From sequence record NC_054926.1: a DNA stretch of 64,000 nucleotides. One strand, given 5' to 3'. The translations under genes were made by a program, and so were the position numbers. Origin of the DNA: Escherichia phage vB_EcoM_OE5505. The notes beneath the pieces were generated by a model. It ran no database searches and had not been told where the DNA came from. It worked only from the letters and a program-made list of their open reading frames with translations. Positions 3,885-43,186 of this stretch are shown here, piece by piece. The stretch's first letter is position 1. Each line of letters starts with the position of its first letter.

Positions 3885-5021
3885 TTATGGATAGGTATAG
3901 ATGATACCAGTTTCTAAAGCAGTTTTATGAATGATGTATCCATTGCGTGATTCTTGAACATCAACTTCTGGATAGTCTTTCATCATCTTCTGAAGAGTGT
4001 AACGATGCAGGTAGTATTTACTGTCTGGATCTTCAGTTTTCCAATCTTTACCTTCTTCGGTCATTTTTTGGATTTCATCCATAACCCACCAACCGCACCA
4101 GATATAAGCTGAAGTACGATGTGGAAGAGGATGAACATAAGGCAATTCACCTTCTGGTTCCGGAGCAACTTTATCAGTTACCTGAACTTGGCCTGTTGCT
4201 TTAACTGTTTTACTATCATAGTCGGTTGCTGTAACGACAGCAGTAACTTCAATAGTTTGACTTCCAATAGATGAGGTGTCAATGGTGTATACGTTAGTTG
4301 ACCCTTCTACAGGAGAAGAATCTTTCTTCCATGAATAAGTAATTTATGCTGCTTCAGGTGCTCCAGTAACATTAGCCGTAAATGTAGCCGAAGCATCTTG
4401 CTGAACGTTAATAGAAGGAGGAGTCAATGTAACCTGTGGATTCATTGTCTTCTTATTAACTGTCAATGATACTTCATTAGAAGTAACTTCCTTTTCATTG
4501 TAATTTTCTGCAGTTACTTGCGCTACACATTTAATTCTTTTTACTCCACTTGTAGTTGGAGTATAGTTAAATGTAGAGTTAGTTTCTCCACCAATTTGAG
4601 AATCATCTACATACCACTTATATGTAGCAGACGCTCCATCAGGTTGAGAAGCTAAGGCAGCAGTAAATTGAACTGGAGTTCCGATTACTCCTTCCGAAGG
4701 ACTATCAGGAGTTACTGTTATTGTAGTAGTCTGTGTCTTATTTTGAACTGTGATAGTTGTCGTAGTTTCTGCTGTTTCAGGTTCAGCTTCAGATTCTGGA
4801 ACTGTATTTGTTGCAACCACCTTAATAGTCTTTTGACCTGCAGGTCCTTTTAGTACATAGCTAAAAGTTGCTTCAGCTCCATCCTGTGGAACATTATCTA
4901 CACTCCAAGCATAGGTAATAGTTCCACCTTCAGTTTGACCACTGGGTGCAGCAGTAAACTGCTTGGTTTCATCAATAACTCCTGTTGGGGTTTTAGGAGT
5001 TATATCAACTGTAAAAGTCAT
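3885..5021 (-). pseudogene. hoc: hoc (outer capsid Ig-like decoration protein) interrupted by one in-frame TAA at 4344-4346
   Basis: ORF 4344..5021 matches the Hoc N-terminal domains; the same frame runs with no further stop through 3885 and encodes the Hoc C-terminal capsid-binding region (…ELPYVHPLPHRTSAYIWCGWW…). Confidence 0.8.
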
Positions 5022-5030
5022 AAGTTATCC

Positions 5031-5711
5031 TTATTTTAATGTTACGAAAGAAGAATTGCGTGTTTCACGAATTAGAACTGATCCATCACGATTAATGTAG
5101 TAAATTAAGCTAAATAACGTTTGGTGCGCCGACGCGTGTTCAAAACTAGTTGGGTGAGATTTCCAATCCGGAGTTTCAGCAATCCATTGATAAATCCACC
5201 AAGGAACAGTACAGAATCCTGGATTTTTTCCAATCAGCTGAAGATTCGGACTAAAGTTTTCCGGAAGAGTAAATACAGACGGCTTTTCAAATTCAATAAT
5301 CTCAGCTACAGCCTGTTCGAATTTTTCTTCAACAAAAGGAGTATCTTCAATCAAAACATCAGTATTTTCAGGAATTTTATCCGTTTCTACTACTTCAATT
5401 TTAATGTCAGATTTAACCGGAGAATCAATCAGAAGTGCTGCCTCTGGATTGACTTCTTCATCGTCATATTTTAATCCGTCTGCGGCATCAGCAGCATCGA
5501 TTAAGTCTTTAATAGATAACCCATCAGTCTCTGGCATAGGTTCACTAGCGAGCTTCTGGAGGGCTTCTTCAATATCATTAACGATATTATCAAAAGATTT
5601 ATTCTTTTTGACCTTTATACCAAACTGTTCAGCATATTCAGCTAATTTAGCTTTAGCTTCTTTATTATCATCAAGAGCCTTCAGCTCTGCAATATAATCT
5701 TTATCTATCAT
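5031..5711 (-). CDS. inh: Acidic 226-aa protein at the T4 inh position (prohead protease inhibitor-like)
   Basis: Size and position between hoc and uvsW; assignment by synteny. Confidence 0.6.
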   Translation of the reverse strand: MIDKDYIAELKALDDNKEAKAKLAEYAEQFGIKVKKNKSFDNIVNDIEEALQKLASEPMPETDGLSIKDLIDAADAADGLKYDDEEVNPEAALLIDSPVKSDIKIEVVETDKIPENTDVLIEDTPFVEEKFEQAVAEIIEFEKPSVFTLPENFSPNLQLIGKNPGFCTVPWWIYQWIAETPDWKSHPTSFEHASAHQTLFSLIYYINRDGSVLIRETRNSSFVTLK

Positions 5712-5724
5712 AATATTTCCTCAG

Positions 5725-5732
5725 TATAAATA
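5725..5732 (+). promoter_or_regulatory. T4 late promoter upstream of uvsW
   Basis: TATAAATA about 30 bp upstream of the uvsW ATG. Confidence 0.5.
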
Positions 5733-5761
5733 TAGATATATTTATTACATGGTATTTAGAC

Positions 5762-7273
5762 ATGACTGACATTAAAGTACATTTTTATGATTTTAGTCAC
5801 GTGAGAATTGATTGTGAAGAAAGTACATTTCATGAACTCCGTGATTTCTTTAGCTTTGAAGCTGATGGGTATCGTTTTAATCCGAAGTACAAATATGGTC
5901 ACTGGGATGGACGAATTCGTCTTTTAGATTATAATCGCCTTCTTCCATTCGGTTTAGTCGGGCAAATTAAAAAGTTCTGTGATAACTTTGGCTATAAAGC
6001 CTGGATTGACCCGCAAATTAACGAAAAAGAAGAATTATCAAGAAAAGATTTTGATGAATGGCTTTCTAAATTAGAAATCTATTCAGGAAATAAAAGAATT
6101 GAACCGCATTGGTATCAAAAAGATGCAGTGTTCGAAGGATTAGTTAATCGTCGTAGAATTCTTAATCTTCCAACATCCGCAGGTAAATCTTTAATTCAAG
6201 CTTTGCTTGCTCGGTATTATTTGGAAAATTATGAAGGCAAAATTCTTATTATTGTTCCAACAACTGCTCTGACAACTCAGATGGCTGATGACTTTGTTGA
6301 CTATCGTTTATTCAGTCATGCAATGATAAAGAAAATCGGTGGTGGAGCATCAAAAGATGATAAATATAAAAATGATGCACCGGTCGTTGTTGGTACATGG
6401 CAAACTGTAGTAAAACAACCGAAAGAATGGTTCTCACAGTTTGGAATGATGATGAATGATGAATGTCATCTTGCTACAGGAAAAAGTATTTCATCTATCA
6501 TATCAGGTTTAAATAACTGCATGTTCAAATTCGGTTTGTCTGGTTCATTACGTGATGGCAAAGCCAATATCATGCAGTATGTTGGAATGTTCGGTGAAAT
6601 ATTTAAGCCAGTAACGACCTCTAAATTAATGGAAGATGGACAAGTAACTGAGTTAAAAATTAATAGTATTTTTCTTCGCTATCCCGATGAGTTCACTACT
6701 AAATTAAAGGGAAAAACTTACCAAGAAGAAATAAAAATTATTACTGGGCTTAGTAAAAGAAATAAATGGATCGCTAAATTAGCTATTAAGCTTGCACAAA
6801 AAGATGAAAACGCTTTTGTCATGTTTAAACACGTATCGCACGGTAAAGCTATTTTCGATTTAATTAAAAATGAATACGATAAAGTTTATTACGTATCAGG
6901 GGAAGTTGATACCGAAACCCGCAATATAATGAAAACCTTAGCTGAAAACGGTAAAGGAATAATTATAGTAGCTAGTTATGGTGTATTTTCTACTGGTATT
7001 TCAGTTAAAAATCTGCATCACGTTGTTTTAGCACACGGTGTTAAATCTAAAATTATTGTATTGCAAACAATAGGTCGCGTATTACGTAAACATGGTTCTA
7101 AAACAATCGCAACAGTCTGGGACCTCATAGATGATTGTGGTGTTAAGCCAAAATCTGCTAATACGAAAAAGAAATACGTTCATTTGAACTATCTTTTAAA
7201 ACACGGCATTGATCGTATTCAGCGCTACGCAGATGAAAAATTTAATTACGTAATGAAAACAGTTAATTTATAA
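5762..7273 (+). CDS. uvsW: UvsW DNA/RNA helicase
   Basis: 503-aa ORF matching T4 UvsW; helicase motifs (PTSAGKS Walker A, DECH box). Confidence 0.9.
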   Translation: MTDIKVHFYDFSHVRIDCEESTFHELRDFFSFEADGYRFNPKYKYGHWDGRIRLLDYNRLLPFGLVGQIKKFCDNFGYKAWIDPQINEKEELSRKDFDEWLSKLEIYSGNKRIEPHWYQKDAVFEGLVNRRRILNLPTSAGKSLIQALLARYYLENYEGKILIIVPTTALTTQMADDFVDYRLFSHAMIKKIGGGASKDDKYKNDAPVVVGTWQTVVKQPKEWFSQFGMMMNDECHLATGKSISSIISGLNNCMFKFGLSGSLRDGKANIMQYVGMFGEIFKPVTTSKLMEDGQVTELKINSIFLRYPDEFTTKLKGKTYQEEIKIITGLSKRNKWIAKLAIKLAQKDENAFVMFKHVSHGKAIFDLIKNEYDKVYYVSGEVDTETRNIMKTLAENGKGIIIVASYGVFSTGISVKNLHHVVLAHGVKSKIIVLQTIGRVLRKHGSKTIATVWDLIDDCGVKPKSANTKKKYVHLNYLLKHGIDRIQRYADEKFNYVMKTVNL

Positions 7274-33612: not shown

Positions 33613-34791
33613 TTAAAAGTATTTTTTAAAACTCATCATAACTTTATCATCAACATCATTATCAATCTGTGCAACAAGGTAAGATGACAATTCTACTTCT
33701 TGTGGCGCAGATTGAACATTATCAGAATTAAGATATTCACGAATCCAAGGATATGGATGTTTAACCGGAGCATCGGTAATTGGGCATGGAAGACCACACT
33801 GCTTCATACGAGATACAGTTAAGTAATCAATAAAGCTCCACATGCTATTTGTATTTAATCCAGGAACATCTCCATCTTTAAATAAATGAACTGCCCAATC
33901 TTTTTCTTGGCGGTTAACTTCCATGAAAATATCAACTGCTTCTTGTTCACACTCTTGAGCAATTTTAACCCATTCATCGCCATCAGTACCAGATTGAAGT
34001 TGACGAATAATATATTGGGTGCCTTTAAGGTGAAGCTGTTCATCGCGTGCAATGAACTTCATAATCTTGGCATTACCTTCCATGATTTCCATGTTCTTAT
34101 GGAAGTTAAAGGTACATGCAAAAGATACATAAAAACGAATAGCTTCCAATGCGTTGATTACATGCAAACAGAGGTAAAGAGATTTCATTAGCTCACGCTT
34201 CCAATATGTCTCATGCTCAATAGCATCTTCAATAACGTCTTCGTCTGCATTAATTTCTTTTTGGTATTCGATATCAGCTTTAGCGTTTTCCCAATAACGA
34301 GTTTTAATCAGAACATCATCATAATAACGTCCAATGGATTCAGCACGTTTCATAATAGCTTCATCTAATACAATCTCATCAAATACCTTCGATGGATCAG
34401 TATAAAGATTTCGCATGATATGAGTATATGAACGACTGTGAATAGTTTCACTAAAAGTCCATGTAGCAACCCATGTATCAAGACTTGGGTCTGAAATTAA
34501 TGACATAAGTACAGCAGACGGCGCACGACCCTGAATGCTATCTAAAAGTGATTGATACTTCAGGTTGTTAGTAAAAATATTTTGCTGGTACTGAGGAAGC
34601 TTATTAAACTGTGCAGCATCCATCATTAAGTTTACTTCTTCAGGACGCCAGAAAAATGACAACTGCTTTTCGGTTAAATCTTCAAAAACTTTATGACGTT
34701 GAATATCATAACGCGCAATACCAAGACCTGAACCAAAAAACATAGGTTCTTTTAAAACATCAACTGGGTTTGTATTAAAAACTGTGCTCAT
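33613..34791 (-). CDS. nrdB: Ribonucleotide reductase small subunit, uninterrupted
   Basis: Single 392-aa ORF with iron-centre ExxH motifs; no intron. Confidence 0.9.
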   Translation of the reverse strand: MSTVFNTNPVDVLKEPMFFGSGLGIARYDIQRHKVFEDLTEKQLSFFWRPEEVNLMMDAAQFNKLPQYQQNIFTNNLKYQSLLDSIQGRAPSAVLMSLISDPSLDTWVATWTFSETIHSRSYTHIMRNLYTDPSKVFDEIVLDEAIMKRAESIGRYYDDVLIKTRYWENAKADIEYQKEINADEDVIEDAIEHETYWKRELMKSLYLCLHVINALEAIRFYVSFACTFNFHKNMEIMEGNAKIMKFIARDEQLHLKGTQYIIRQLQSGTDGDEWVKIAQECEQEAVDIFMEVNRQEKDWAVHLFKDGDVPGLNTNSMWSFIDYLTVSRMKQCGLPCPITDAPVKHPYPWIREYLNSDNVQSAPQEVELSSYLVAQIDNDVDDKVMMSFKKYF

Positions 34792-34842
34792 AAATTTTCC
34801 ACTTAGTTAATAGATAGTGACTCGTCCATGAGTCAAATTATA

Positions 34843-37107
34843 TCATAATTTACAGGATGAACAATCTTCAGCTTTTGGAGTTTCTATTTCATAATCATCA
34901 GTACCAGAACCATCACGGGTATTATGATAATAGAAATTTTTTCCGCCAAAATACCAAAAATACAAAAGGTCATCAATCATTATTGACATTGGAACCTTTC
35001 CTTTTGGAAAAATCTGCGGGTCATAATATGTATTCGCTGAAGCTGATTGACATACCCATTTCAGCATAATAGCTACCTGCGTAAGATAAGGTTTATTACC
35101 TTTCTTAGCTAATTTCCACGTATAATCATATAGGTCTATGTTATGCTCAATATTGGGCACGACTTGATTAAAGGAGCCCTCTTTTGATTCTTTAACAGAG
35201 ACTGGTCCACGTGGAGGCTCGATACCGTTTGTACTGTTAGAAACTTGGGAAGATGACTCACATGGCATAAGTGCTGATAATGTGCTATTACGGATGCCAA
35301 AGAGCTTAAGGTCTTCCCGCAGCGCCGACCAGTCACAAACGTATTTTGGAGCTGCGATTTGGTCAATCTTTTTATTGTACCAGTCGATAGGTAATTCGCC
35401 TCGAGACCAACGAGTGTCTGAATAATATTCGCAAGGTCCTTTTTCTTTGGCGAGCTTAATGGATGCTTTAATGAGTCCATACTGTAATCTCTCAAATAGT
35501 TCATGTGTTAAATCATTAGCATCTTCATAAGAAGCAAAGTTACTTGCCAGCCAAGCTGCATAGTTGGTAACACCTACACCGAGGTTACGACGCTTTTTAG
35601 CTTTTTCTGCTTCAGGAACTGGATATCCTTGGTAATCCAACAGATTATCAAGAGCACGAACTTGAACTTCTGCCAATTCATTAATTTTATCTTGGTCTTG
35701 CCAGTCAAAATTATCTAGTACGAATGCAGAGAGAGTACACAATCCAATTTCAGCATCAGGACTATTCACATCATTTGTTGGAATAGCAATTTCACAGCAC
35801 AAGTTACTCTGGCGAATAGGTGCCTTTTCACGAATAAACGGAGTATAGTTATTCGTATTATCAATGAACTGCACATAAATCCTTGCTGTTCCTGAACGTT
35901 CAGTCATGAGCAATTCAAATAGTTCACGGGCTTTAATACGCTTTTTACGAATATTAGGGTCTTTTTCTGCTGCTTCGTATAATTCACGGAAACGGTCTTG
36001 GTCTTTAAAATAAGAATAATAAAGCTCTCCACCCATTTCATGGGGACTGAACAAAGTAATGTAATCGTTCTTTCCAAAACGTTCCATCATCAAATCATTC
36101 AGTTGAACACCATAATCCATATGACGAATGCGGTTTTCTTCTACGCCTTTGTTATTTTTCAAAACGAGAAGATTTTCAACTTCCAAATGCCAAATAGGAT
36201 AATAAGCAGTAGCAGCGCCGCCACGAATTCCACCCTGTGAACATGATTTAACTGCAGTCTGAAAATGTTTCCAAAAAGGAATAACACCAGTATGGCGTAC
36301 TTCACCCATGCCAATCTTAGAACCTTCAGCACGAATCATACCAACGTTAATACCAATTCCAGCGCGTTTAGAGATATATTCAACAATCGAAGCGGAAGCC
36401 TTATTGATAGACTTCAATGAATCTCCTGCCTCAATAACAACGCATGAACTGAACTGTCGAGTCGGAGTACGGCAACCAGCCATAATAGGAGTTGGCAGTG
36501 AAATCTGTCGAGTAGATACTGCTTCATAAAAACGAATAACATGTTTTAATCTATCAACAGGTTCATCTTGATGCAATGCCATTCCAATAGTCATAAATGC
36601 AAACTGTGGAGTTTCATAAATTTGACCAGTGGTTTTATCTTTAACTAAATATTTTTCTTTTAATTGCATCGCCCCGGAATAAGTAAATTCCATATCCCGT
36701 TCGTGCTTAATTTTTGATTCTAAAAATGTAATTTCTTCTGCTGAATATTTTGACAACAATTCAGGGTCATATTTACCTTCATTTACACAGTAAGAAATAT
36801 GGTCAATAAATGAACGTGGTTCATACTGCCCATAAACATGCTTACGAAGAGCAAACATTAAACAGCGTGCAGCTACATATTGATAATCAGGCTCTTCAAC
36901 CGAAATAGAATTCGCAGCGGCCTTAATGACAATAGTCTGAATATCATCAGTTGTCATTCCATCACGGAGATAAGATTTAATATTTTCATATAATTCATAA
37001 GGATCTACTGATGTTCCTTCAGCTGCCCAAGATAAAACTTTAATAATTTTTTGCGGGTCAAAGCTCTGAGAAACACCACTACTTTTGATAACATTAATTA
37101 ATTGCAT
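34843..37107 (-). CDS. nrdA: Ribonucleotide reductase large subunit
   Basis: 754-aa ORF, ATP-cone N-terminus and class I RNR features. Confidence 0.9.
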   Translation of the reverse strand: MQLINVIKSSGVSQSFDPQKIIKVLSWAAEGTSVDPYELYENIKSYLRDGMTTDDIQTIVIKAAANSISVEEPDYQYVAARCLMFALRKHVYGQYEPRSFIDHISYCVNEGKYDPELLSKYSAEEITFLESKIKHERDMEFTYSGAMQLKEKYLVKDKTTGQIYETPQFAFMTIGMALHQDEPVDRLKHVIRFYEAVSTRQISLPTPIMAGCRTPTRQFSSCVVIEAGDSLKSINKASASIVEYISKRAGIGINVGMIRAEGSKIGMGEVRHTGVIPFWKHFQTAVKSCSQGGIRGGAATAYYPIWHLEVENLLVLKNNKGVEENRIRHMDYGVQLNDLMMERFGKNDYITLFSPHEMGGELYYSYFKDQDRFRELYEAAEKDPNIRKKRIKARELFELLMTERSGTARIYVQFIDNTNNYTPFIREKAPIRQSNLCCEIAIPTNDVNSPDAEIGLCTLSAFVLDNFDWQDQDKINELAEVQVRALDNLLDYQGYPVPEAEKAKKRRNLGVGVTNYAAWLASNFASYEDANDLTHELFERLQYGLIKASIKLAKEKGPCEYYSDTRWSRGELPIDWYNKKIDQIAAPKYVCDWSALREDLKLFGIRNSTLSALMPCESSSQVSNSTNGIEPPRGPVSVKESKEGSFNQVVPNIEHNIDLYDYTWKLAKKGNKPYLTQVAIMLKWVCQSASANTYYDPQIFPKGKVPMSIMIDDLLYFWYFGGKNFYYHNTRDGSGTDDYEIETPKAEDCSSCKL

Positions 37108-37664: not shown

Positions 37665-38525
37665 TTACACCGCCATTTTTCCTTTAATAGGAGGGTGTGA
37701 TTCATAGTTGTTAAGAACAAAATTATGCGGCTTTGCGAATTGACTCAACCAAAATACCTGCGATTCTGTGTCCCATTCATCAAATTCATCTGGAAATTTT
37801 AATTGCAATTCGCATAAATCCATAGGTTCACGACGTAAAATTTCTTTACATTGTTCTACGTGATTCATATAGATATGAGTATTACCACCGGAAAATATCA
37901 AATCTCCCGGAATAAGATTACACATCTTAGCTACAATATGAACTAACGCAGCATATGATGCAATGTTGAATGGCAAGCCCAAGAACACGTCAACACTTCT
38001 TTGATACCACTGTAAATCCAAATAGCCATTACGCACATTAAATTGATAGAACATATGACAAGGCGGTAATGCCATCTGCTTGAGTTCAGCTGGATTCCAT
38101 GCAGAAACAATTTGACGCCTATCATTTGGCAGTTTTTTAATACGATCAATAACTTCTATAATTTGGTCTACACCGCCAAAATCACGCCACTGTTTTCCAT
38201 AAATTGGACCAAGTTCACCGCTATTGTATCCTAAATCTTTTGCTTGATTTTCGTAATTTTCATCCCAGACTGTTTTGCCTTGGATTAACGAATCATGTTG
38301 AATTAATCGCAAATCATTGACATTTGTGCTTCCCGATAAAAACCATATTAGCTCAGCAATGCAAGCTTTCCAGGCGAGCTTCTTAGTTGTTACTGCAGGA
38401 AAACCTTTAGTTAAATCCCAGCGTAATTTAGTACCGAACAAAGCAATTGTTCCTGTGCCTGTTCGGTCATCGGTTTCATAGCCATTTTCAAAAATGTCTT
38501 TAATTAAATCTTGGTATTGTTTCAT
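37665..38525 (-). CDS. td: Thymidylate synthase, uninterrupted
   Basis: Single 286-aa ORF with the active-site PPCH motif; no intron. Confidence 0.9.
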   Translation of the reverse strand: MKQYQDLIKDIFENGYETDDRTGTGTIALFGTKLRWDLTKGFPAVTTKKLAWKACIAELIWFLSGSTNVNDLRLIQHDSLIQGKTVWDENYENQAKDLGYNSGELGPIYGKQWRDFGGVDQIIEVIDRIKKLPNDRRQIVSAWNPAELKQMALPPCHMFYQFNVRNGYLDLQWYQRSVDVFLGLPFNIASYAALVHIVAKMCNLIPGDLIFSGGNTHIYMNHVEQCKEILRREPMDLCELQLKFPDEFDEWDTESQVFWLSQFAKPHNFVLNNYESHPPIKGKMAV

Positions 38526-38938: not shown

Positions 38939-39765
<827 letters not shown>

Positions 39766-40938: not shown

Positions 40939-41844
40939 TTAAAGGTCATTCAAAAGGTCATCTAGGTCCGTGTCATCAGCACTAGATGAACTGCCAGAGC
41001 TTGAGCTCATAAAATCATCTTCAGTTTTTGTATTGAAGTCATCAACATTGAATGCATCCAAATCATCAGCAACTTTATCAGCTTTCTTAGCAGCAGTTGC
41101 AGCAGCACCGCCCATCACAGCAGTTCCCATAACTTGACCGAATTTAGTGCTCAGTTCTTCAAACGATTTGAATTTATCTTTAGAAGTCATTTCAGAAAGG
41201 TCAACCATTTGTTCGAACAGTTCTTTCTGGAAAGATTCATCGTCAATGTTTGGAATCGCAGATTGATTCAGGAATTTAGATTCGTCGTAGTTACTAAATC
41301 CAGAAACCTGTTTAACTTTCAGTACAAAGTTAGCACCTTCCCACGGACAAGTTACATCAACCGGAGTTTCACCCATTTCAACATCAACCGCAATCATCGC
41401 GTTGATTTTATCCCAGATTTTCTTACCGAAACGATATTTAAATACTTTACCTTCATTTTCTGGAGCAGCTGGGTCTTTTACAACAAGAATATTAGCCCAG
41501 TAAGAAGTTTTACGTTTAACAAGACTGTACTCTTTATTGTCAGTGTTGTACAGATCATTTTTACTGATGTACTGACATACTGGACAAGAATCGTAATCAC
41601 CATGGGTAGATGAACATGTTTCAATATACCATTTACCATTTTTCTTGAAACCGTGATTTACAAGAATTGCGAATGGTGCTTGTTCATCATTTTTAGACGG
41701 AAGAAAACGAATTACTGCTTGACCGTTACCCGCATTATCGAGTTTCAGTTTCCACTCGCCTTTATCTTCAGAAGAAAAACCTTTATTGCCATTCAGTTTA
41801 GCCATTTGTGCAGCAAGTTCAGCAGTAGATTTACGTTTAAACAT
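40939..41844 (-). CDS. 32: Single-stranded DNA-binding protein gp32
   Basis: 301-aa ORF matching T4 gp32, including the acidic Ser/Asp-rich C-terminal tail. Confidence 0.9.
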
Positions 41845-41898
41845 TTTATTTCCTTTTTAATTTAATTTAATTAACAGTTGGTGCTATGACACTTTACC

Positions 41899-42531
41899 TC
41901 ATAGCTGGCATAATTCGCAATACTCTGGGTCTTCGAGAGGTATCCAACCTGAGTTGAAATACTTTACCATCGATTTAGCAGTTGTATCAGTTATATTTAT
42001 ATTACCTTTAACTCTTCGCCATCCAGGAGTTTTACCGTACAGATTAGAGGATAATAATAACACATAATTCTCGTAAGCAATATGAGATAATTTCCAAGAC
42101 TCTATATTAGCTCGTGATGTTTTCCAAGGTCTAAAATCGTCACGGTTCATATAATTAGCCAATCTCATATGCTCTCTAACTTCCGGGTCTTTGGCTGGAT
42201 GAGTTTCACCACTCACACCAAATCCACCACCAGCATATACCAGATTAAAATAGTCTGGATTATCTCTGGCATTTACTTCAAGTTGGTATTTTCGTTCTGC
42301 TTCAATAACATCCAAGTCATCATCAATTTGAATTATTTTAACGCTCGGTTTTTGAAGCATTAGCGCATTCAAAAATCTTTTTTGTTTACATGAGCTCCAG
42401 TATTCCTTTCCGGAAGAGTCATATATTATTCCGTTCTCAAATGAGCAATTTAATTTACTACCGATATAATAGTATGGCGGAGTCTTATTTTTGACACGGT
42501 CTTCAAATGTAAACCAATATACTATATTCAT
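41899..42531 (-). CDS. Hypothetical 210-aa protein between genes 32 and 59, possibly a degenerate GIY-YIG-type endonuclease
   Basis: N-terminal IVYWFTF…(9 aa)…YYYIGSK loosely resembles a GIY…YIG motif; it sits where T4 carries a freestanding homing endonuclease. Confidence 0.45.
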   Translation of the reverse strand: MNIVYWFTFEDRVKNKTPPYYYIGSKLNCSFENGIIYDSSGKEYWSSCKQKRFLNALMLQKPSVKIIQIDDDLDVIEAERKYQLEVNARDNPDYFNLVYAGGGFGVSGETHPAKDPEVREHMRLANYMNRDDFRPWKTSRANIESWKLSHIAYENYVLLLSSNLYGKTPGWRRVKGNINITDTTAKSMVKYFNSGWIPLEDPEYCELCQL

Positions 42532-42532
42532 A

Positions 42533-43186
42533 TCAATACTTGCAAGATTTCACAGTTTCAATGAAAACATTTTTAGCTTTCTGTGAATCAATATTTAAAA
42601 TTTTTCTATAAGCCTTTAACTTTATAGAATAATTATTCCAGACTAAATTATCAGTCTGTTCATCATGTTTATCAATTATATTTAAAAACGAATCAAGCAA
42701 GATAAACGTCTCAAACGAAATTATGTTCGATTGAAGTAGTTTAAAAATATAACTTGATTGAACTTTTGGATTATATTCAAAAATTTCTTTAAAAGCAGAA
42801 ACTTCAACTTTTTTACTGAAATAGTAAATGTTGCGAATATCTTCTTCAAACTTAAATTTAATTTGCTTCAAGCGTCCGATATATTCACGATAAAACACAA
42901 GTGCATCAGCGTCAGAGATGTCACCAATCCAAGCATCTTGGTTAGCTACAAGATTGCTAATAAAAATTAAAGTTAATTCTTTTAATTTATACTTTTCTGA
43001 TAGCTTTTGGAAAAAATACTTATCCCTTCGCTTTTGATAAGCGGCATCAGACACCCGCATGCACCAATTATACTTAATTACATCATACTTTCCATTCATA
43101 TGTTGTTTTATCATTAAGTATAATTTATAAACTGATTTACCATCAATGTATCTTTCACCACCAGCAGGCATGCGGAGTTTAATCAT
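42533..43186 (-). CDS. 59: Helicase loader gp59
   Basis: 217-aa ORF at the conserved position. Confidence 0.8.
   Translation of the reverse strand: MIKLRMPAGGERYIDGKSVYKLYLMIKQHMNGKYDVIKYNWCMRVSDAAYQKRRDKYFFQKLSEKYKLKELTLIFISNLVANQDAWIGDISDADALVFYREYIGRLKQIKFKFEEDIRNIYYFSKKVEVSAFKEIFEYNPKVQSSYIFKLLQSNIISFETFILLDSFLNIIDKHDEQTDNLVWNNYSIKLKAYRKILNIDSQKAKNVFIETVKSCKY

Follow-up and report, generated by a model that had tools for sequence, protein, structure and literature searches.

The open reading frame between genes 32 and 59 of Escherichia phage vB_EcoM_OE5505 encodes the T4 SegG protein, a free-standing homing endonuclease with a divergent GIY-YIG domain

The sites cut by free-standing homing endonucleases are hundreds to thousands of bp away from the endonuclease genes, so that resection of the break must reach the homology flanking the gene; SegG of phage T4 presumably cleaves at a distance of a few hundred bp from where its gene is inserted. 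SegG is reportedly an active free-standing GIY-YIG homing endonuclease, said to have been described as such by Liu, Belle, Shub, Belfort and Edgell in 2003 (J Mol Biol 334:13), and according to the same work it reportedly cuts gene 32 of the segG-less phage T2, into which it is copied together with flanking T4 sequence (marker exclusion). The table of a review of T4 mobile elements gives segG as a free-standing GIY-YIG endonuclease gene of demonstrated activity, located in the 32-59 interval, and names gene 32 as the place of cleavage (PMC2988022). The passages of that review on this locus describe segG as a promoter-less cassette transcribed from upstream promoters, place the middle and late promoters of gene 32 within it, and report that the segG-32 transcript is processed by RNase E (PMC2988022). 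A second source attributes to SegG the exclusion of the T2L markers of gene 32 when T4 is crossed with T2 (PMC2330249), and a third states that SegG mediates its own transfer, together with gene 32, into T2 and that the gene 32 mRNA pseudoknot overlaps ORF32.1/segG (PMC535899). The endonuclease activity, gene 32 target, homing and marker exclusion discussed below are taken from such literature via secondary citations, and would apply to the locus described here through the identity of its protein with that of T4.

We analyzed a stretch of 64,000 nucleotides of the phage genome (NC_054926.1), referred to here as the window. The open reading frame listing of the window contains an ATG-initiated frame of 210 aa on the minus strand at 41899..42531, which starts with MNIVYWFTFEDRVKNKTPPYYYIGSK and lies between genes 32 and 59, as the first-pass annotation of this DNA had stated without giving the strand. 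The genes concerned are as follows.

40939..41844, minus strand: gene 32 (gp32 ssDNA-binding protein, 301-aa ORF), from the T4 annotation of the matching region
41899..42531, minus strand: segG coding sequence, 210 codons plus a TGA stop at 41899-41901, from identity with T4 SegG and membership of PHROG 7504
42533..43186, minus strand: gene 59 (gp59, helicase loader, 217-aa ORF), the upstream neighbor, from the T4 annotation

Like both of its neighbors, the frame is on the minus strand; its start codon begins 1 nt past the stop of gene 59, and 54 nt separate its own stop codon from the gene 32 ATG. Gene order across frd, frd.1-3, 32, segG, 59, 33, dsbA, rnh and 34 is as in T4, within a window that is overall a mosaic Tequatrovirus, its nearest record being 97.5% identical across 24 kb. 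Comparison by BLASTP showed that the protein is identical to T4 SegG (AAD42455.1) at 210 of 210 residues, and the DNA is 99.8% identical to that of T4 (AF158101.6), from which it differs at 1 of 633 nt; the T4 record annotates the matching segment as 'SegG homing endonuclease; site-specific DNA endonuclease; GIY-YIG family'. The first-pass annotation had pointed to segG in the gene 32-59 interval of T4 and proposed an alignment with the T4 protein, and in pointing to segG it was right. The notion that the frame encodes merely a divergent relative of SegG is ruled out, as the protein is T4 SegG itself.

Several Tequatrovirus records match the frame at 100% DNA identity. A megablast search with the 633 bp recovered 140 phage records, all of them full length and 95-100% identical (at least 99% in 115 records and 95-99% in the other 25). 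Among the PHROGs families, the protein matches phrog_7504, 'homing endonuclease', with an E-value of 1e-133, and gives further weak matches to other homing-endonuclease families. The gene is intact and full length in all seven other segG-carrying loci that we compared (eight of eight genomes including the window), and the 36 nucleotide differences among those loci produce only 5 amino-acid changes, i.e. the variation is mostly synonymous. Since the same 633 bp recur in 140 records, remain intact with few amino-acid changes and are placed directly after gene 59, the frame is not a chance reading frame. The best explanation overall, to which we assign a probability of about 0.97, is that it is segG, once named ORF 32.1, which in T4-type phages encodes a free-standing homing endonuclease that cuts gene 32 of relatives lacking segG.

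In phage PEC04 (KR233165.1; 960-1592 of locus L015) segG is annotated from an internal start as a protein of 153 aa. We rejected a truncated gene in this phage, as the full 210-codon frame is intact and the shorter product is an annotation artefact of the internal start, with no decay. A record named 'Escherichia phage T4' (OL964745.1, 159,752 bp) has a SegG match at 137448-138068 that is just 71% identical and is annotated as two homing endonuclease coding sequences; it may represent a disrupted or recoded segG. A 98.6%-identical SegG also occurs in PV654520.1, a 142-kb record labelled as a Pseudomonas phage (host P. aeruginosa), where a gene from Tequatrovirus would not be expected; the record may be mislabelled or contaminated.

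Sequence elements of gene 32 extend into segG. The promoter-like motifs among them were located by pattern, because the sigma-70 promoter and terminator scan, whose results were no better than those for shuffled sequences, does not cover T4 middle and late promoters.

42054..42079, minus strand: MotA-type middle-promoter-like element for gene 32 (TGCTTA, 15 nt, TATTAT), 235 nt upstream of the gene 32 ATG, found by pattern search
41994..42001, minus strand: T4 late-promoter consensus TATAAATA inside segG, an exact match 157 nt upstream of the gene 32 ATG
41883..41905, minus strand: hairpin GCUAUGA/UCAUAGC (arms located, hairpin predicted), forming the 5' part of the translational-operator pseudoknot in the mRNA of gene 32

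In phage ASO78A, the nearest relative, the annotation has a T4-type middle promoter at the position equivalent to the first element, and the literature is consistent with a putative promoter role for both motifs. The 5' arm of the predicted hairpin includes the last codons of segG and its stop, and marks the 3' junction of the segG insertion. An Rfam search of the operator region gave nothing relevant, with one chance match resembling a snoRNA (E 0.11).

These elements bear on whether segG is still a working gene. It could be a decayed and inactive remnant, kept only because gene 32 has its promoters and part of its mRNA operator there, as promoter-like elements and a pseudoknot arm inside the frame could preserve the DNA without preserving the protein; a degenerate GIY-YIG motif without a Pfam match would fit such a remnant. 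We regard this possibility, which the first-pass annotation had raised as a decayed homing endonuclease, as very improbable. The identical T4 protein is reported in the literature to be active and to home efficiently, and catalytic-type residues are invariant across a family of approximately 500 clusters (see below). Decay is also argued against by the full-length frame in every carrier examined (8/8) and by the ratio of 36 nucleotide to only 5 amino-acid differences.

Close relatives differ in whether they carry segG at this one intergenic site, a presence/absence polymorphism. A query spanning gene 32, segG and gene 59 matched 858 records, 139 of which contain segG (at least 80% query coverage), and most of the other approximately 350 records at 95% identity or higher match in two pieces with 72% coverage, i.e. 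they have an empty site. In the empty-site phage RB32 the spacer between genes 59 and 32 is 99 nt long and holds its own TTGCTTA and TATAAATA elements together with a T2-type pseudoknot sequence. Compared with RB32, the left (5') junction of the segG insertion is the gene 59 stop codon, and at the right (3') junction homology resumes at CCAGCTATGA, which comprises the last segG codons, the stop and the 5' arm of the pseudoknot hairpin.

We also compared the adjoining part of gene 32 between phages with and without segG. An exact-pattern scan of viral contigs for the start of gene 32 gave just 4 loci, and GenBank phage records were therefore used: 16 in total, 8 with and 8 without segG, a small and phylogenetically non-independent sample.

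41602..41793, minus strand: haplotype linked to segG, covering nt 52-243 in the 5' part of the gene 32 sequence (extending ~240 nt), from 8 segG-carrying against 8 segG-less phages

Variants at nt 52/53 occur in seven of the eight carriers and in none of the eight phages lacking segG, and nt 57 tracks segG too. A 3-nt indel after nt 63 is found in 6/8 carriers against 0/8, as is a variant at nt 243 (again 6/8 against 0/8), and nt 227/228 read CA in all eight carriers and in two of the eight others. Fisher p values for these associations, computed over 16 related genomes, range from 0.001 to 0.007, and beyond about nt 260 of gene 32 the same comparison of 8 with 8 phages gave no association with segG. 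Because nt 227/228 (window 41617-41618) are CA, residue 76 of gp32 is Thr and not Asn: the codon is ACA in 8/8 carriers and AAC or AAT in 6/8 phages without segG, a nonsynonymous difference. Such a linked haplotype is the pattern expected of a co-conversion tract between segG and a cleavage site located in gene 32, a few hundred bp from its start. It possibly contains changes that confer immunity on the target site, and codon 76 could fall within the SegG target or close to it. The gene 32 changes that accompany segG, that at codon 76 above all, may protect the host genome from self-cleavage.

In order to place the protein among GIY-YIG endonucleases we considered its motifs, profiles and predicted fold. 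The AlphaFold2 model of SegG, built from a 26-sequence alignment, has a mean pLDDT of 91, with a strand-strand-(hairpin)-helix-strand-helix layout in its N-terminal part and an all-helical C-terminal half; confidence is low for the linker between the two domains (residues ~101-115).

42217..42531, minus strand: GIY-YIG-type catalytic N-domain (residues ~1-105), with a strand (IVY), a strand (YIG), an inserted beta-hairpin, a helix, a strand, the E79 helix and then N96
41902..42186, minus strand: all-helical C-terminal domain (residues ~116-210), presumed to be the DNA-binding/target-recognition module

An exhaustive HMM search recovered at least 504 representative clusters (50% identity; E ≤ 1e-3) that have residues ~1-105 in common, and from its matches we built a family alignment of 123 sequences (A4). 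The first-pass annotation had quoted the start of the protein correctly (MNIVYWFTF…PYYYIGSK) and had seen in it a degenerate GIY-YIG signature, a description that agrees with what we found. The first motif is I3-V4-Y5, without Gly, its Y5 lying within predicted strand 2-8; the second is Y22-I23-G24 in predicted strand 21-26, after a spacer of 16 residues compared with the usual ~10-11. Position 3 is I, V or L throughout the SegG-like family, and T4 SegA, B, C, E and F likewise lack the Gly in an alignment of N-termini, indicating that the 'GIY' Gly is not required in Seg-type members.

Among the 123 family representatives, conservation coincides with the hallmark positions: Y5 is found in 121/121, Y22, G24 and N96 in 123/123 each, I23 in 117/123 and E79 in 122/123. 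Also near-invariant are K26 (121/123), Y44 and S47 (122/123 each) and R12 (105 of 113 non-gap rows). E79 sits in predicted helix 75-85, and both E79 and N96 align with the Glu and Asn regions of Seg proteins and I-TevI by hhalign and BLASTP, the register to I-TevI E75 being uncertain by 1-2 residues. The Y44-x-(G/S)-S47 motif corresponds to GY-x-GSG of SegA, B, C and E. The absence of an obvious nearby catalytic Arg, which the first-pass annotation had remarked upon, holds for the family as well, as no Arg conserved at the position of I-TevI R27 was found among the 123 representatives. K51-R52 of SegG opens predicted helix 51-59 and aligns with K-R of SegB, and R52 was considered as an equivalent of the catalytic Arg; it was dropped for the family as a whole because position 52 varies, being mostly G, L, E, N or D among the representatives.

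We compared the 123-member alignment by hhalign with a set comprising the N-termini of T4 I-TevI, I-TevII, SegA, B, C, E and F. SegG residues 1-104 matched over 91 columns with a probability of 96.6% and an E-value of 5.2e-10, compared with just 59% and 9e-5 for the smaller 26-sequence SegG profile. In BLASTP, SegG is collinear with SegB over residues 4-103 at 27% identity, and Foldseek ranked I-TevI (1ln0) first for the SegG model, at an E-value of 1.3 that is not significant. Pfam returned no family for SegG even at E ≤ 10, NCBIfam had no match for the protein, and searching PDB sequences gave noise only, whether the query was the protein or the 26-sequence profile; none of the 29 homologues recovered by a word-indexed search has a precomputed Pfam domain. 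Profile-profile and fold comparison, together with the conserved catalytic residues, place the predicted N-domain in the GIY-YIG superfamily, as a divergent Seg-type domain.

That the protein is unrelated to GIY-YIG enzymes and resembles the motif by accident, another suggestion of the first-pass annotation, is the least probable reading of all: the empty Pfam, NCBIfam and PDB sequence searches and the non-significant Foldseek match would suit it, but the hhalign match is to bona fide T4 GIY-YIG enzymes, the alignment with SegB is collinear, conservation falls on the Tyr, Tyr-x-Gly, Glu and Asn hallmarks, and relatives of SegG carry NUMOD modules typical of homing endonucleases. The first-pass annotation had held that the lack of a GIY-YIG profile match would refute its idea, and Pfam is indeed empty. 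This is nevertheless misleading, because an active enzyme and a family of approximately 500 clusters are invisible to PF01541 and NCBIfam, so that a right idea would be wrongly refuted. The lesson for automated scans is that curated profile libraries overlook the experimentally active SegG enzyme family.

Downstream of the SegG-like N-domain the family varies. PF01541 was matched by none of the 123 relatives scanned, and PF19835 gave weak matches in only 6 of them (best E-value 3e-4). NUMOD3 DNA-binding motifs occur in 81 of the 123, and a few relatives have NUMOD1 or an I-TevI-type zinc-finger domain after the N-domain. A tblastn search found SegG-like sequences in 272 phage records; full-length relatives at 34-58% identity also adjoin the helicase-loader gene, and matches confined to the N-domain adjoin endonuclease VII (gene 49) or rpbA in other phages. 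This points to a modular build, in which a conserved nuclease domain is combined with interchangeable DNA-binding modules at different loci. The C-terminal domain of SegG would presumably serve in DNA recognition, and one of the conserved basic residues, R12 or K26, may replace the canonical Arg. We also put forward, tentatively and as something we think rather doubtful, that the SegG-like N-domain constitutes a large GIY-YIG subfamily (at least 504 clusters) missed by Pfam and NCBIfam, with an active site that is perhaps rearranged (no helix-1 Arg, a beta-hairpin after YIG, and K26 or R12 as the substitute), and, separately, that Thr or Asn at gp32 residue 76 could decide between immunity and sensitivity of the target.

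With segG as the identity of the frame, the literature and the features described above suggest how the gene would act. Having no clear promoter of its own, segG would be transcribed from upstream promoters, with low-level translation beside the gene 59 stop codon (partly our inference). According to the literature, SegG would make a double-strand break in gene 32 of a coinfecting segG-less relative such as T2; the helical C-terminal domain would bind the target and the N-terminal GIY-YIG domain would cleave it, with a flexible linker between them. Cleavage of the GIY-YIG type would depend on Mg and leave 2-nt 3' overhangs. The break would then be resected and repaired by recombination on the segG-carrying template, a repair through which the recipient is reported to acquire segG along with the neighboring 5' part of gene 32 ('intronless homing'), with which our haplotype data are consistent; the genetic outcome would be the exclusion of T2 gene 32 markers. 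Loss of segG may be discouraged, as has been suggested in the literature, by the embedded promoters of the essential gene 32 and by the operator overlap, both of which we located as sequence elements: a clean deletion would be costly because gene 32 promoters would lie inside the gene and its last codons overlap the gene 32 pseudoknot.

Compared with T4 SegG, the gene itself shows no difference: the protein (210/210), the locus, the embedded promoter-like sequences of gene 32 and the pseudoknot overlap are the same. The gene is already fully known, and the finding is real but ordinary; nothing about it is biologically new, because segG is a textbook case of intronless homing and of T2/T4 marker exclusion. 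The surroundings are those of a different mosaic Tequatrovirus, with 21 differences from T4 in gene 32 and without the other homing endonuclease genes that T4 has in this region. Inspection of four intervals (13-2264, 5031-7273, 33613-37107 and 37665-38525) left segG as the sole T4-type homing endonuclease gene of the window: gp23 and gp24 are adjacent, with no segD, as are inh and uvsW, with no segE; nrdB is uninterrupted and abuts nrdA, with no nrdB intron/I-TevIII and no mobE; and td is an uninterrupted 286-aa frame, with no td intron/I-TevI. Elsewhere in the window, an 81-aa frame at 39520-39765 (minus strand) abuts frd, where T4 has only a gap of ~70 nt between frd and frd.1, and matches phrog_3183 (unknown function) with an E-value of 8e-43. 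A Hoc-like head decoration frame at 4344-5021 (minus strand) encodes only 225 aa with one PKD/Ig-like domain detected, compared with 376 aa for T4 Hoc.

SegG and the T4 proteins SegA, SegB, SegC and SegE (PF19835, SegE_GIY-YIG) are all free-standing and intergenic, and in each a GIY-YIG domain at the N-terminus is followed by a DNA-binding region (presumed in SegG) at the C-terminus. They share the (x)xY, YIG and Y-x-G-S-(G/S) motifs, the helix Glu and (Y/F)N, and in our alignment none shows an Arg aligned with I-TevI R27, whose role another residue may fill in the Seg-type domains. Identity between SegG and SegB is ~27% over 100 residues. Unlike these four proteins, SegG has a motif spacer of ~16 residues, an extra beta-hairpin (residues ~30-37) after YIG, and a helical C-terminal domain without the NUMOD3 motif, and it has K26 where they have His. 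[quoted passage not shown] While I-TevI is encoded within an intron and cuts near its insertion site, the free-standing SegG is described in the literature as cutting gene 32 internally, at a distance.
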